A stretch of 36,536 nt of DNA from an uncultured Bacilli bacterium (GTDB lineage: Bacteria; Bacillota_I; Bacilli_A; RF39; UBA660). The notes under the pieces were generated by a model that ran no database searches, was not told the DNA's origin, and was given only the letters and a program-made list of their open reading frames with translations. Where the stretch lies: NCBI GenBank assembly GCA_947628105.1, contig CANQYN010000001.1:1-36536 (forward strand). Reading direction: 5' to 3'. How positions within the stretch are numbered: position 1 is the stretch's first letter; each line of letters starts with the position of its first letter. The position numbers and the translations under genes were made by a program. This document shows, one piece after another, positions 31,450-35,974 of this stretch.

Positions 31450-33045
31450 TTATGTAGTATTTTTAAATGTAAATATAATATCTATCCTCTTATCTTGATA
31501 AATATAAATTTTTTCAACTAAATTTATTATTAATTCTCTTGTTGGCTCCTCTATTGATAAAAATTCATTAATGTATTTTTTTATTTGCTTATTATCTACT
31601 TTATTTGAAGCTATTTGTTCACTTTTAAGATTATCAATCCTCTTTTTATTATCATCTATTTCACTTTTTATATTTTCACTTATTCTTAAATATTGTAATT
31701 CATCAATGACACCTTTTAACCTATCCATATAAGTTTTATCTAAACTTTCAGTCAGTTTATTATTGGTAATTTTGAAATGTTCTATCTGTTTTTTAGTTTT
31801 TAAAGTTTTGTCTTCAAATTTTATATTTCCAATAGAATCTTTTATTTTGTTTTTATCAAGATATTTATGACAAACATCCTTAACATTATCTAAAATTACT
31901 TTTTCTAATGTTTCATAATTATTTGTATGTGTAGTACAAACATGATACTTTGAATATGTTCTGTAATAATCGCAAGTAGTATAACTTCTTCCTGTTTTAT
32001 TTTGATATCTTATTGTTATTCGATGCTTACAATCTCCACAGTATAAAAGGCCATCTAATAAATAAAATCTTTTCTTCTCTGGTCTTTTTACATTTTTAGG
32101 TAGTAGTGTTTGAACATAATTAAAAGTATCTCTATCTATTATCGCTTCATGAGTATTCTTAACAATTATATAATCATTAGGACTATTTTTAACTGTCTTC
32201 TTTAATTTATAATTAATCTTTTTAGTTTTACCTTGAACTGAATCTCCTACATAGATTTGATTAGTTAAAATTGCTTTTACAGTTGTATCAACCCATACAC
32301 CTTGCTTTTGTAAAATACATTTACTCTTGCACTTTGTATTCCAAACATAATTATAATAGGATGCTGGAGTCTTAATTTTTCTTTTGGTAAGTTCTTGTGC
32401 TATATAATGATAGGTATTCCCTTGAAGTGCTAAATCAAATATTAACTTAACAGTCCTAGCTTGTTCTTCATTTATTATTAAATGATTTTTATTATTTGGA
32501 TCTTTTATGTACCCAAAAGGACATCTTCCAGACACATATAAACCATCTTTCATTCTTGAATGTAGACTAGTTTTAACTTTTTTTGAAATATCTTTAGCAT
32601 ACATATCATTCATTATTGCTTTAAAAGGCGCTATATCATTATTGGTATTATCTATGAATGTATCTATCCCATCATTAATAGCAATATATCTTATATTATT
32701 GTTTGGAAAGTATTTTTCTATTAATTCTCCTGTTCCAATATAATCTCTACCTAATCTTGACATATCTTTCGTAATAATCATATTGATTTTACCAAATTCA
32801 ATATCTTTCATCATTCTTTTAAAAGCAGGTCTTTCAAAATTAGTTCCTGTAAACCCATCATCTACATACTCATCTATAACATTATAATTATTTTCTTTAA
32901 CATATTGATTAAGTAAACTTCTTTGACTGACGATACTATCAGATTCGTGTGTTAAATCATCTCTTGATAATCTTATATAAAGTCCTACATTAAAACTATT
33001 ATTTACGATTCTCAATTCATACTCCTTTCTTTTTGGAAGTATCAT
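31450..33045 (-). CDS. Large serine recombinase (resolvase/invertase catalytic domain, recombinase domain, zinc ribbon, coiled coil)
   Basis: Catalytic region VGLYIRLSRDD...SQR...YVDDGFTGTNFERPAFKRMM...IITKDMSRLGRDY. Zinc ribbon LYCGDCKHRI...TCDYY...HVCTTH. C-terminal LVEKIYIYQDKRIDIIFTF resembles the DUF4368-type end. A TTG at 33015 with AAAGGAG 7 nt upstream is an alternative start. Confidence 0.93.
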   Translation of the reverse strand: MILPKRKEYELRIVNNSFNVGLYIRLSRDDLTHESDSIVSQRSLLNQYVKENNYNVIDEYVDDGFTGTNFERPAFKRMMKDIEFGKINMIITKDMSRLGRDYIGTGELIEKYFPNNNIRYIAINDGIDTFIDNTNNDIAPFKAIMNDMYAKDISKKVKTSLHSRMKDGLYVSGRCPFGYIKDPNNKNHLIINEEQARTVKLIFDLALQGNTYHYIAQELTKRKIKTPASYYNYVWNTKCKSKCILQKQGVWVDTTVKAILTNQIYVGDSVQGKTKKINYKLKKTVKNSPNDYIIVKNTHEAIIDRDTFNYVQTLLPKNVKRPEKKRFYLLDGLLYCGDCKHRITIRYQNKTGRSYTTCDYYRTYSKYHVCTTHTNNYETLEKVILDNVKDVCHKYLDKNKIKDSIGNIKFEDKTLKTKKQIEHFKITNNKLTESLDKTYMDRLKGVIDELQYLRISENIKSEIDDNKKRIDNLKSEQIASNKVDNKQIKKYINEFLSIEEPTRELIINLVEKIYIYQDKRIDIIFTFKNTT

Positions 33046-33181
33046 TGAATAGTATCTTCTTATTTAAAATATTATAATTCATATATTGCTTTTCTAATTC
33101 TATTTTTAATACATTCGTTATTATGTCATTTAAAGATTTACCATTTTCTTTAAATTTTAAATTAACATTATATTTAACCAT
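33017..33181 (-). CDS. Possible 54-aa ORF coupled to the recombinase gene
   Basis: Read manually: MVKYNVNLKFKENGKSLNDIITNVLKIELEKQYMNYNILNKKILFNDTSKKKGV*. GGAGG lies 11 nt upstream. The stop (33019-33017) sits 1 nt before the alternative TTG start of the recombinase. Below the track length cutoff. Confidence 0.35.
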   Translation of the reverse strand: MVKYNVNLKFKENGKSLNDIITNVLKIELEKQYMNYNILNKKILFNDTSKKKGV

Positions 33182-33611
33182 AGAGTTTCATACCTCCAAT
33201 AAATTCTATGGCTTTAAAATTTAAATAAGTAATATTATTTAGATAATAATACCCCTAACAATATTACTTGTTATCATAGTCCTCCTGATTGTTTATTCCT
33301 CGATTAAATATTTTTCCTCTGAAATTAAATCTTCTCATTTATATTATCTTCTTTTCACGATACATGATACCCCCCACTAAAAAGAAGAGTCAAGTCATTA
33401 AGTATAGAAAGTTTTGTCTATCATCCTATAATACTTGCAAATGCATTAATTTATAAAAAAGCAGGATAAGATGTTTACACATCAATACTAAACTAATCCT
33501 TATTTTATAAGAGTTGATTATGGTGCTATTCTTATTTTGTACTTACGAAATTCATTCTACTTTGTAGGTTGATATAAAGAATAAAGTAAATAATATCAAT
33601 ACATTAGATCA

Positions 33612-33660
33612 CAAAAAATCATCCTAATTTATAGTTTTCGCTAAATTTTATAGGATGATT
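33612..33660 (-). terminator. Terminator after the kinase-like gene
   Basis: atcatccta (33618-33626) pairs with taggatgat (33651-33659), loop 24 nt. On the minus strand it is followed by TTTTTTG. Confidence 0.5.
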
Positions 33661-33678
33661 ATTTTTTACTAGTTAAGG

Positions 33679-34830
33679 TCATATATAATTATTTTTTGTA
33701 TAAATTTCATATTTAGAATACAAGTCATTTAAAAATCTAGTGGAATTTTCATTTTGTTCTGATTCTTCTATTTTTTTTCCTATTGTTCTTATCATCGTTT
33801 CAGTAAATTTAGATTCTAAATCATATTCATAATCATATTCATCTTGATAATTACACTTATTAATTGAATTTTTTTTATGATATTTCCATATTTCCATTAA
33901 ACAAAATAAATTTGAATCATTTCTAATATCATTAACTTCTACACTCCAAAACTTTTCACCATTATTAGTTATTTTATCGATAATTTGGTCTACCACTATT
34001 TCATATAATTCATCATAAACCGGATAATCTTCTTCTTCTAATTTAAATAAATCTTTCTTGACAACTCCTTGTTCCATTAAATATTGTTTTAAGCCAGCAT
34101 CTTTATCAAACAAATAAAATTTTTCATATTTTTCAAAATTAGGAATTACAGATTTAATTGCAAGAAGAGTCTTTGCTTCTATAGAATACTCCAATAAGTC
34201 TTTTTTTGATTGTTGATCTAGTGATAACTCCTCATTATATTTAAGTGTCGATGCAATTTGTCTAGGTTTAGGTGTTACAAATTTTAATGCTTTAAACAAT
34301 TTAATAGGATTATTTTCATCAAATACTTTTTCTACATCATAATGCAAAAAATCTATAAACCAAAATCCAGTTTCTTCATCGTAAAATAAATTTTTAGGTT
34401 TAGCCTCATACCCCATTTCATATAACATACAACCATCACTAATAAGTTTTTTATAATGTTCAAATGGAATGTTATAAACACGATTTAAATCTGAAATTAC
34501 CGTATCATATGAAACACCATATTTCGCCATAGAAGCGCAATTTTTTCCTTTGCATTTTTCTTGTAATACATAACAAACATCATCACTTCCTTCAATTGTC
34601 CTCATAACAGAAATATGCTTTGGAGTGTTAACACCTTTTTGAATTTTTTGATTAACCCCTTCCATAACCCTCTCTTCACAATCACGTGCTCGATGATTAT
34701 ATTTAACATATTTTAACGGAAGCATATATTTTACTAAAACAACATCCCCAAAATCAAAGCATTGACTTCCTCCATCACTTATATTTTGTTTGTTTTTAGA
34801 TTGCTCAATTGCATATTTTATATCTATCAT
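33679..34830 (-). CDS. Protein-kinase-like fold protein (atypical catalytic loop) with a helical C-terminal domain
   Basis: Gly-rich loop plus Lys (ISDGGSQCFDFGDVVLVKY), hinge-like VCYVLQEKCKG, catalytic-loop-like GYEAKPKNLFYD, DFG-like WFIDFLHYD. SD AAGGAG 8 nt upstream. TGTTATAAT extended -10 at 34858-34850. Confidence 0.5.
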   Translation of the reverse strand: MIDIKYAIEQSKNKQNISDGGSQCFDFGDVVLVKYMLPLKYVKYNHRARDCEERVMEGVNQKIQKGVNTPKHISVMRTIEGSDDVCYVLQEKCKGKNCASMAKYGVSYDTVISDLNRVYNIPFEHYKKLISDGCMLYEMGYEAKPKNLFYDEETGFWFIDFLHYDVEKVFDENNPIKLFKALKFVTPKPRQIASTLKYNEELSLDQQSKKDLLEYSIEAKTLLAIKSVIPNFEKYEKFYLFDKDAGLKQYLMEQGVVKKDLFKLEEEDYPVYDELYEIVVDQIIDKITNNGEKFWSVEVNDIRNDSNLFCLMEIWKYHKKNSINKCNYQDEYDYEYDLESKFTETMIRTIGKKIEESEQNENSTRFLNDLYSKYEIYTKNNYI

Positions 34831-34893
34831 ATCGTTTACTCCTTTTTTTATTATAACATATTTATAATCATAAATATCATTATTTAAATATTA

Positions 34894-35871
34894 CTACCCA
34901 TTATTCCCCATAAAAATTCTATCCCCTGCTTTAACTGTATAAGAAGTTGTAGATAAAAAGGGTGACTCTCCTGATTCTGAAAGTAAAAGGACTTGACCAA
35001 CATAAATATCATCATTTGTTAAATTGTTCAATATTTTTAAATCCGATACACTCATATTAAACTGCTTGGCAATCTTATATAAACTATCCCCCGCTTTGAC
35101 TGTATAAGTAGTTTCAGTAACAATATTTTCTTCTTTCATAGGTATTTGTAATACTTGACCAATCGATAAATTATCAGACGATAAATTATTCAATTTTTTT
35201 ATTTCATCAACCTTCGTATTAAATTGCTTTGCTAGTTTCCACAACGTATCTCCATTTTGTACTACATATGTATTCCCCGTTGAAGGAACAGTTGGAAGAG
35301 AATATCCATTTTCTTGTAAAATAGCTCTTATTACTGCATCTACATATTTTTTATAATTTTTCTGAATACGGTCAAGATCTGAAGCATTATCAATAAATCC
35401 ATACTCTACAATAACAGGTTGTGTTTTTCCGGTATTTCTTAAAATATAATAATAATCTAAATTAGGATTAGAAGTGGATCTTCTTTGATAATATGATCGA
35501 GTTATTTGTCCTTCTTTTCCAATTTCAGATAAAATACTACGAGCAAGATTATCATTATTACGAAGAGCATATATCACCTCTGCTCCTTGTGCACCTTTAA
35601 TAGCAGAACCGGCCGCATTAATATGATTAGAAACTACAATCACATTCGGAGAATCCCCAAACGCATTTAATACTCGTTTTACTCGTTCTGTTGGATTTAC
35701 TGTTTCATCAGTAGAACGTACTAATTTTACTGGAATTCCTAATTCCTTAAAACGATCATACATATATTTTGAAATTTGTAAAGTTAAATCTTTTTCTTTT
35801 ACTCCATTCCCTACTGCACCAGAATCCGCTCCCCCATGTCCAGCATCTACAACCACCTCTAAATTATTCAT
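34894..35871 (-). CDS. N-acetylmuramoyl-L-alanine amidase (Amidase_3) with LysM modules, 3'-truncated by the insertion
   Basis: Amidase_3 motifs [36 protein letters not shown]. Two complete LysM modules ([17 protein letters not shown]...IGQVLQIP; [17 protein letters not shown]...VGQVLLL) and a third cut after KAGD. ATG 35871 follows AGAGGTGA. Confidence 0.88.
34920..34928. repeat. Right junction core of the integrated element (att core copy 2)
   Basis: TATCCCCTG is identical to 30305-30313. It lies at the point where the third LysM module of the amidase stops making sense (…SYTVKAGD|RIFMGNNG*). Confidence 0.75.
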
Positions 35872-35974
35872 CTTTTTCACCTCTAATATAACGTATGACA
35901 TGATAATCTTTTGGTGATATAAGAAAATTATTATTTACTAAATAAAACTTCAAATATTGCATTATTTTTTTCAA

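Follow-up and report, generated by a model that had tools for sequence, protein, structure and literature searches.

The question raised by this locus was whether a small protein that carries the landmarks of a protein kinase, but has glutamate (Glu, E) in place of the catalytic aspartate (Asp, D), was likely to be an enzyme. The gene for this protein is carried by a serine-recombinase element in a 36,536-nucleotide (nt) stretch of DNA from an uncultured Bacilli bacterium (assembly GCA_947628105.1, contig CANQYN010000001.1, positions 1 to 36,536), and the whole of this stretch is referred to here as the window. The 383-amino-acid (aa) product, P0001, was found to belong to, or to found, an unannotated family in the protein-kinase-like superfamily. 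We saw a slightly better than even chance that P0001 is a catalytically active, atypical transferase that depends on ATP and Mg, and most probably a phosphotransferase. That P0001 uses ATP and is a catalyst is what we infer, together with the part played by each residue and the class of substrate, and the features of the gene and protein that bear on these points were as follows.

33679..34830, reverse strand: coding sequence of the 383-aa kinase-fold protein P0001 (open reading frame [ORF] listing and translation; uninterrupted, 383 codons)
34336..34794, reverse strand: protein-kinase-like core, residues ~13 to 165 (AlphaFold2 model, Foldseek comparisons with PDB and BFVD, and hhalign comparisons with PrkC and APH alignments)
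34765..34779, reverse strand: Gly-rich loop, S18-D-G20-G21-S22, which aligns with GEGGMA of PrkC
34729..34731, reverse strand: K34, equivalent of the lysine (Lys, K) of the beta3 VAIK motif, in register with the Lys of VAVK in PrkC
34672..34674, reverse strand: E53, equivalent of the alphaC Glu, 19 residues past K34 and at the start of model helix 52-64
34390..34407, reverse strand: E142-A-K144-P-K146-N147, equivalent of the catalytic loop (compare D-L-K-P-E-N)
34348..34356, reverse strand: I159-D160-F161, with the metal-binding Asp of the DFG/IDF type, 13 residues past N147
33706..34329, reverse strand: family-specific all-alpha C-terminal domain, residues 168 to 375 (folded alone)

An earlier note on this DNA had read kinase-like landmarks, in the order and spacing seen in kinases, from the 383-aa product. 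All of the motifs that it quoted were present in P0001: DGGSQCFDFGDVVLVKY at residues 19 to 35, VLQEKCKG at residues 88 to 95, GYEAKPKN at residues 140 to 147, and FIDF at residues 158 to 161. The spacings from K34 to E53 (19 residues), from E142 to N147 (5 residues), and from N147 to D160 (13 residues) are the same as those of K72 and E91 and of D166, N171, and D184 in PKA. Conservation of the individual residues was counted in 157 full-length homologues, which were 25 to 87% identical to P0001. The position of the catalytic Asp of the HRD motif was occupied by Glu in 154 of the 157 proteins, by Asp in two, and by Lys in one; hence, the canonical Asp is not a property of this family. The metal ligands, in contrast, were those of a kinase, as the catalytic-loop asparagine (N147) was present in 156 homologues and the DFG-type Asp (D160) was present in 155. 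Also well conserved were I159 (156/157), K144 (143/157), K146 (142/157), the alphaC residue E53 (Glu in 149 and Asp in 4), and the Gly-rich loop (S18, 151/157; G20, 147/157; G21, 145/157; S22, 144/157). Further near-invariant residues were D132 (156/157), D151 (154/157), R49 (152/157), and R77 (150/157). The conservation of E142, N147, D160, E53, and G20/G21 across the 157 homologues indicated that the motifs were not due to chance.

Of the landmarks listed in the earlier note, the Lys of V-L-V-K was not strictly conserved. Position 34 was Lys in 126 of the 157 homologues and arginine (R) in 14, and the replacements in 29 members with all other motifs intact were R, E, V, C, Q, and L. As the family can do without the beta3 Lys, a Lys34 mutant, which had been proposed as a catalytically dead control, would be a poor choice for that purpose.

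To place these residues in register with known kinases, the family profile was compared via hhalign with an alignment of PrkC kinase domains from the source genome and its relatives and with an alignment of APH-type kinases from genomes of the same class. The match to the APH-type alignment had a P value of 9e-5 and a probability of 59%, which was suggestive only, and the match to PrkC had a P value of 0.004; the control comparison of APH with PrkC gave a P value of 8e-10. Both alignments agreed on the Gly-rich loop and the hinge, and both put E142 on the catalytic Asp, as had been claimed from the sequence of the window, and N147 on the catalytic-loop asparagine. In the case of D160, the APH comparison placed I-D160-F on the viDfe motif, where D160 corresponds to the metal-binding Asp, and the PrkC comparison was shifted in this stretch. 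A MAFFT alignment with the genome's own PrkC placed D160 on the DFG Asp (ITDFG) and K34 on the VAVK Lys.

A second route to the kinases was provided by remote relatives. P0215 and P0216 matched P0001 at an E value of ~3e-4 in a search of 1.84 billion cluster representatives and also matched the Pfam Pkinase family at 1e-4 to 4e-4, which is under the cut-off (P0218 was sub-threshold as well); matches on both sides link P0001 to kinases transitively. Both proteins have an E-[LI]-K-P-G-N loop, with Glu exactly as in P0001, together with a canonical GxGxxG...V-I-K. They are part of a remote sister group (P0206 to P0218; for example, MCB9800666.1 from a Pseudomonadales metagenome-assembled genome) that has a D-P-S-K-P-D-N(-F-F-Y-D) loop and is likewise unannotated. 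This group shares A-P-x-x-H-Y-x-K-L-x-x-D ... K-P-x-N-x-F-Y-D-x-x-x-G-F-x-F-I-D with P0001, but its members are 200 to 340 aa long and end without the helical domain, and their Gly-rich loop is a canonical GxGGxS/GxGxxG. Multi-domain relatives were uninformative; the fn3-repeat match of P0210 was spurious, and P0174 had only a weak ankyrin match.

The predicted structure agreed with the kinase fold that the earlier note had proposed. An AlphaFold2 model of P0001, for which the input was a 31-sequence alignment, had a predicted local distance difference test (pLDDT) score of 94 and a predicted template modeling (pTM) score of 0.90. When the model was compared with PDB using Foldseek, all of the top 50 matches were protein-kinase-type domains, and 35 matches had an E value of ≤1e-3. 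The PDB matches, which had E values of 1e-4 to 1e-3 and probabilities of 0.95 to 1.0, included Chk1, GSK3, SIK3, CDK6, GCN2, AAK1, PknB, and the kinase-containing lanthipeptide synthetase ThurKC; in BFVD, the top matches were almost all viral Ser/Thr kinases. The core contained the Gly-rich loop, beta3, alphaC, the hinge, the catalytic loop, and the metal-binding Asp. At the level of the fold, therefore, P0001 belongs with the protein-kinase-like superfamily, which is defined by a bilobal core with a five-stranded N-lobe, alphaC, a hinge, a catalytic loop, and a metal-binding loop. Neither an activation segment nor an APE motif was present.

The remaining part of the protein, which the earlier note had described as about 200 aa of helical sequence with no known motif, was indeed all-alpha. 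Residues 168 to 383 were folded alone using 24 locus-derived sequences, and the model had a pLDDT score of 90 and a pTM score of 0.85. The best match of this domain in a Foldseek search of PDB had an E value of 4.3, and nothing was found at an E value of ≤0.001. Based on these models, P0001 is predicted to consist of a minimal kinase core and a family-specific helical domain that replaces the usual helices of the kinase C-lobe.

A collection of 5.8 billion proteins contained 144 homologues of P0001 at an E value of ≤1e-3. These proteins are ~380 aa long (nearly all are 376 to 390 aa), no Pfam domain is recorded for them, and the sole name given by their sources is "hypothetical protein." An exhaustive phmmer search of the 1.84 billion cluster representatives yielded 106 homologues. 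The earlier note had assigned no family to P0001, and our searches led to the same result: P0001 had no credible match in Pfam, PHROGs, NCBIfam, or PADLOC, 39 diverse family members had no match in Pfam, and neither phmmer with P0001 nor hmmsearch with the family profile found anything among the PDB sequences. Specifically, the hidden Markov model (HMM) for Pkinase (PF00069) did not match P0001 at an E value of ≤1 and the gathering threshold was not reached, and there was no Pfam or NCBIfam match of P0001 to APH/CAK (PF01636). A six-frame search of the genome with the APH HMM picked up PrkC alone, and weakly, and did not detect the P0001 gene. No description of the P0001 family came up in a full-text literature search on kinase folds that are atypical or carry the Glu. 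The best reading of these data is that P0001 represents a new family within a known superfamily.

How might such a protein work? In the mechanism that we propose, the S-x-G-G-S loop and the alphaC residue Glu53 would hold the nucleotide, and Asn147 and Asp160 would bind the metal ions. Lys144 would touch the gamma-phosphate, like the Lys of D-L-K-P-E-N in Ser/Thr kinases, and Glu142 would act as the general base, substituting for the canonical Asp. Since K34 is not required in the family, another basic residue probably makes the phosphate contacts, and the nearly invariant R49 and R77 are candidates for this role. The helical domain may provide the acceptor-binding site, like the helical subdomain of small-molecule kinases of the APH/choline-kinase type. 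There is precedent for a dispensable beta3 Lys like that of the P0001 family, as some kinases rely on an alternative basic residue (PMC12599244).

P0001 has the same N-lobe and catalytic-core fold as the Hanks-type Ser/Thr kinases (PF00069, PrkC/PknB) based on Foldseek, and it shares their Gly-rich loop, beta3/alphaC pair, hinge, x-x-K-P-x-N loop with the Lys typical of Ser/Thr kinases, and an Asp located 13 residues past the Asn. It differs from them in having Glu for the catalytic Asp, no His-Arg of HRD, and a beta3 Lys that is not essential; in addition, it lacks the activation segment and APE, and the C-lobe helices are swapped for an unrelated all-alpha domain. The APH/choline-aminoglycoside kinases (PF01636) gave the best profile-profile score with the P0001 family. 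Like P0001, they have an I-D-F/W metal-binding motif rather than DFG and an activation loop, a beta3 position that varies between K and R, and a helical C-terminal part, which in P0001 could bind the acceptor. Moreover, members of one P0001 clade are fused to, or encoded next to, GNAT acetyltransferases, an arrangement reminiscent of the bifunctional AAC-APH enzymes. In contrast to the APH-type kinases, however, P0001 has G-x-E-x-K-x-K-N (G-Y-E-A-K-P-K-N) in place of the Brenner motif HxDxxxxN, and its C-terminal domain was unmatched in PDB, including the APH structures. As a lead, a small-molecule acceptor is slightly favored by the profile similarity to APH-type kinases, by the lack of an activation segment, and by the GNAT domains that are fused to or encoded near family members.

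Several observations weigh against an active phosphotransferase. The change from Asp to Glu at the catalytic base strongly impairs canonical kinases, and the placement of E142 at the position of the base comes from profile alignments and motif spacing. Position 34 is non-basic in ~10% of the family members, and by the usual rule, in which loss of the K, the D, or the other D makes a pseudokinase, the P0001 family would be so labeled. No kinase-family HMM matches the family, and the Foldseek TM-scores were low (0.21 to 0.33) because superposition was limited to the N-terminal ~165 residues. Across 27 kinase loci, no conserved neighbor hinted at a substrate for P0001, and the P0001 sequence was present only in metagenomic DNA runs (gut and rabbit).

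Among the alternatives, the one that survived best, though we regard it as rather unlikely, is that the kinase fold of P0001 carries out another ATP-dependent chemistry, such as AMPylation like that of SelO or glutamylation like that of SidJ. In that event, Glu142 and the variability at beta3 would be signs that the nucleotide is oriented differently or that another group is transferred. Of the three canonical catalytic residues, two depart from the norm in the family (Glu for Asp in 154/157 and a dispensable K34), and N147, D160, R49, R77, D132, and D151 are meanwhile nearly invariant. The catalytic residues of the atypical kinase folds SelO, SidJ, WNK, and POMK are also non-canonical yet strongly conserved; the Lys is relocated in WNK and POMK, and the kinase fold of SidJ is reportedly repurposed with the same residue pattern. 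Deviating catalytic residues combined with retained metal ligands are typical of repurposed kinase folds (PMC12599244). However, a carboxylate at the position of the base and a Lys144 like that of D-L-K-P-E-N were kept in P0001, which fits plain phosphotransfer. Furthermore, SelO and SidJ were not among the top Foldseek matches in PDB and BFVD, and P0001 had no detectable sequence similarity or specific structural similarity to SelO, SidJ, WNK, or POMK.

The earlier note had weighed a pseudokinase or scaffold against an enzyme with altered chemistry, and the conservation data favored an active enzyme. A pseudokinase or scaffold would bind a ligand or partner and would not catalyze a reaction; this role would suit a protein in which the Asp and the His of HRD are missing, in which the beta3 Lys is not strictly conserved, and which is recognized by no kinase HMM. 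Pseudokinases usually lose their metal ligands, but N147 (156/157), D160 (155/157), and E142 (154/157) were kept in homologues down to 25% identity. The near-invariance of these three residues favors an active enzyme over a pseudokinase, and the retained metal ligands point to an enzyme whose phosphate contacts would be independent of the beta3 Lys. Since P0001 is also a stand-alone protein with no conserved partner gene to scaffold, we consider a pseudokinase distinctly unlikely and retain an active transferase as the preferred reading.

The P0001 gene is real and is under purifying selection. Pairwise ratios of nonsynonymous to synonymous substitution rates (dN/dS) were 0.15 to 0.35 for the copy in the window and five relatives, which include loci without a recombinase. 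The earlier note had assigned the gene its own -10 element, Shine-Dalgarno sequence, and terminator, which were located as follows.

34850..34858, reverse strand: extended -10 promoter element TGTTATAAT (read directly)
34839..34845, reverse strand: Shine-Dalgarno sequence AAAGGAG, 8 nt 5' of the ATG (read directly)
33611..33660, reverse strand: terminator-like hairpin with a 10-base-pair (bp) A/U-rich stem and a large loop, followed by U6

The first two of these signals were conserved in position. The -10 position was kept as TGTTATAAT, TGCTATAAT, or TGCTAAAAT 5' of the homologues in four other loci (L032, L029, L031, and L030), and the Shine-Dalgarno sequence was kept in the upstream alignment of these loci; no good -35 partner was found for the extended -10 element. 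Support for the terminator was only moderate, as the RNA fold had an energy of -13.8 kcal/mol and a z score of -2.0 relative to shuffled sequences. A consensus scan listed neither the promoter nor the terminator of the kinase gene, and the hairpin is under the G+C rule of that scan. Between the kinase terminator and a 54-aa ORF is a 497-bp gap with no ORFs (positions 33182 to 33678 of the window), the counterpart of which in L029 is ~148 bp. Two homologues from Tenericutes and Bacilli metagenome-assembled genomes (L040:4985-6062 and L041:4086-5178) are each split across two frames and are frameshifted pseudogenes or assembly errors.

The gene upstream of the kinase-fold gene (positions 34894 to 35901, reverse strand) encodes an Amidase_3 domain and LysM repeats, and it is split by the element that carries the kinase-fold gene. 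The ends of the element were located as follows.

34921..34926, reverse strand: left element junction, a GGGGAT core in the codons of the third LysM repeat (...SYTVKAGD), after which the element supplies RIFMGNNG and a stop codon
30306..30311, reverse strand: right element junction, a GGGGAT core; past it, the frame of the LysM repeat continues with TLWNLAKQFNTTINDIKRANNLMSDNLQIGQMLIIP

The GGGGAT core is common to both junctions, and the third LysM repeat resumes 4.6 kb downstream at ...GD/TLWNLAKQF... (the slash marks the junction). The order within the element is the kinase-fold gene, the 54-aa ORF, a large serine recombinase gene (Resolvase, Recombinase, and Zn_ribbon_recom domains in Pfam), and a pair of genes for 98-aa and 235-aa proteins. 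Counted from the left end, the kinase-fold gene comes first in the element; it has the same orientation as the amidase gene and adjoins the 5' part of that split gene. Its position at the element end nearest the host promoter was thus as previously described.

Related loci, with kinases of 58% identity or more, showed that this arrangement varies. In L029 (kinase 78% identical), the kinase gene, the 54-aa ORF, and the recombinase gene are followed directly by the right end. The kinase gene in this locus (L029:1-5260) is flanked by two recombinase genes that are 89% and 79% identical to that of the window, and the locus resembles two tandem elements parted by a LysM fragment, the second of which is compact, with no 98/235-aa pair. 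In L032 (58%), the same left junction is found inside a PG_binding_1-LysM gene, where YTVVSGD runs into TIFMGNNE and a stop codon. This element (L032:5078-7620) is decayed, its host gene is not Amidase_3, its kinase gene is intact, and only the last 79 codons of its recombinase gene remain. L031 (68%) is a recombinase-less mini-element, in which the kinase gene is alone between conserved element ends in a LysM repeat. The kinase gene there (L031:1047-3035; ~1.2 kb) is between YTVKSGD with a stop codon and RVSGD/TLYGIAKKF, and the interrupted amidase gene also lacks its N-terminal ~100 codons. The DNA of the left element end is conserved, and the right-end sequence ACATAAAAAATGTATCAGGGGAT was kept in L031 and L032. 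In L030 (80%) and in L026 and L033 (about 60%), the kinase gene is outside LysM genes.

The kinase-fold gene is optional and rare cargo of this LysM-targeting serine-recombinase element. Only 4 of the ~27 kinase loci are within LysM-gene insertions, and no kinase gene was found in 29 loci of the same bacterial family that have recombinases 77 to 90% identical to that of the window (some of these loci are cut by a contig end). The co-occurrence with serine recombinases that the earlier note had raised is therefore facultative, and the regular association with a LysM-targeting recombinase that is expected of core cargo was not seen. The 54-aa ORF, on the other hand, was present in 28 of the same 29 loci, and the kinase-fold gene was present in 10 of 301 genomes of the family. 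In the loci that have it, the gene stays under purifying selection, even those in which the recombinase has decayed. Most of the 29 loci (L079 to L107) adjoin LysM repeats, and homologues of the 235-aa cargo protein were found in only five of them. Recombinases that match that of the window (positions 31450 to 33181) at an E value of ≤1e-60 are present in 170 of the 301 genomes, often with two to four per genome.

A more far-reaching reading, which we hold to be unlikely at present, is that P0001 represents a new enzyme family with a Glu base, no need for a beta3 Lys, and a chemistry or substrate class that is new for kinase folds, and that selection keeps it as the sole gene retained in a non-autonomous mini-element, which would suggest a benefit to the element or the host. 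If P0001 were an ordinary kinase, only a modest gain would result, namely, the annotation of another family. Time and again, proteins with a kinase fold and non-canonical catalytic residues have proved to be enzymes of unexpected chemistry (SelO and SidJ), and the P0001 family, which none of Pfam, NCBIfam, PHROGs, and PADLOC includes, combines a near-invariant Glu and a dispensable beta3 Lys with a C-terminal domain that is unmatched in PDB. Because P0001 is small, soluble-looking, and stand-alone, it is amenable to immediate biochemistry. It is also a named, testable cargo for a family of serine-recombinase elements, which interrupt cell-wall genes with LysM repeats in gut Bacilli of small genome size.

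The neighborhoods of the kinase gene were heterogeneous. Among 83 neighbor proteins at the 27 kinase loci, the top Pfam family was Lactamase_B (3 of the 83), the Pfam tally revealed no conserved operon partner, and PADLOC gave generic-domain matches only, with no recurrent defense system. In four genomes of a distant clade (31 to 34% identical), the family member, X, lies within a block with the order uvrA - holin-like - lgt - X - trxB - cofD - whiA. These data bear on whether P0001 could be an anti-phage (abortive-infection) kinase or a toxin that is carried for the benefit of the element or the host. Stand-alone Ser/Thr kinases are known defense genes, and the P0001 gene is an accessory gene of rare and patchy occurrence (10/301 genomes) that is mobile-element cargo, is kept even in the recombinase-less mini-element, and in one close homologue adjoins ORF6N (phage anti-repressor-like) genes. 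However, P0001 had no match in PADLOC-DB 2.0, the 27 loci contained no consistent defense system, there was no conserved adjacent small gene like that of an antitoxin, and the distant clade has its gene in a housekeeping block. The defense-island idea of the earlier note was thus unsupported, and we give a role in defense or toxicity a small chance.

A spore-coat kinase of the CotS/BSK type, which would fit the place of the gene inside a sporulation-type intervening element, is very improbable: the host genome encodes Spo0A, some homologue loci are near gerA operons, the element is inserted in a cell-wall amidase gene, and the family profile aligned best with APH/CAK-type kinases (PF01636, which we take to be the Pfam family of the CotS kinases), but the gene had no APH match in Pfam or NCBIfam (which presumably includes the CotS/YsxE/YutH models) and was missed in the six-frame APH search, its promoter is an extended -10 element of the housekeeping sigma type (and, we assume, unlike the sigma-E and sigma-K consensus sequences), and it is absent from 97% of the genomes of the same spore-forming family.

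The block that contains X in the distant clade suggested one further candidate. In Firmicutes, hprK is usually beside lgt, and we considered whether X had replaced HprK. HprK is missing from carrier genomes, but it is equally missing from all 25 genera sampled in the bacterial family, and the idea was rejected because nearly all of these HprK-less genera are without a P0001-family gene. No HPr kinase (PF07475) over the cut-off was found in any of the 25 genera (G000 to G025); of the other families in the class, about two-thirds have one.

The P0001 family is found mostly in small-genome gut Bacilli, with related records from rabbit, mouse, and human gut. The host assembly is 0.91 Mb and 88% complete, genomes of its bacterial family are roughly 1 Mb, and the class includes TGA-recoding genomes. 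As for the association with acetyltransferases, one clade (P0145/P0236) has an N-terminal GNAT fusion and is located between divIVA and CYTH-ileS, and P0058 has two GNAT genes directly upstream, with a 35-bp gap. P0236 (L076:5001-6794; 597 aa) consists of a coiled-coil segment, a GNAT domain (Acetyltransf_3), and the kinase-fold family domain, and fusions of this type were present in three cluster members from independent sources.

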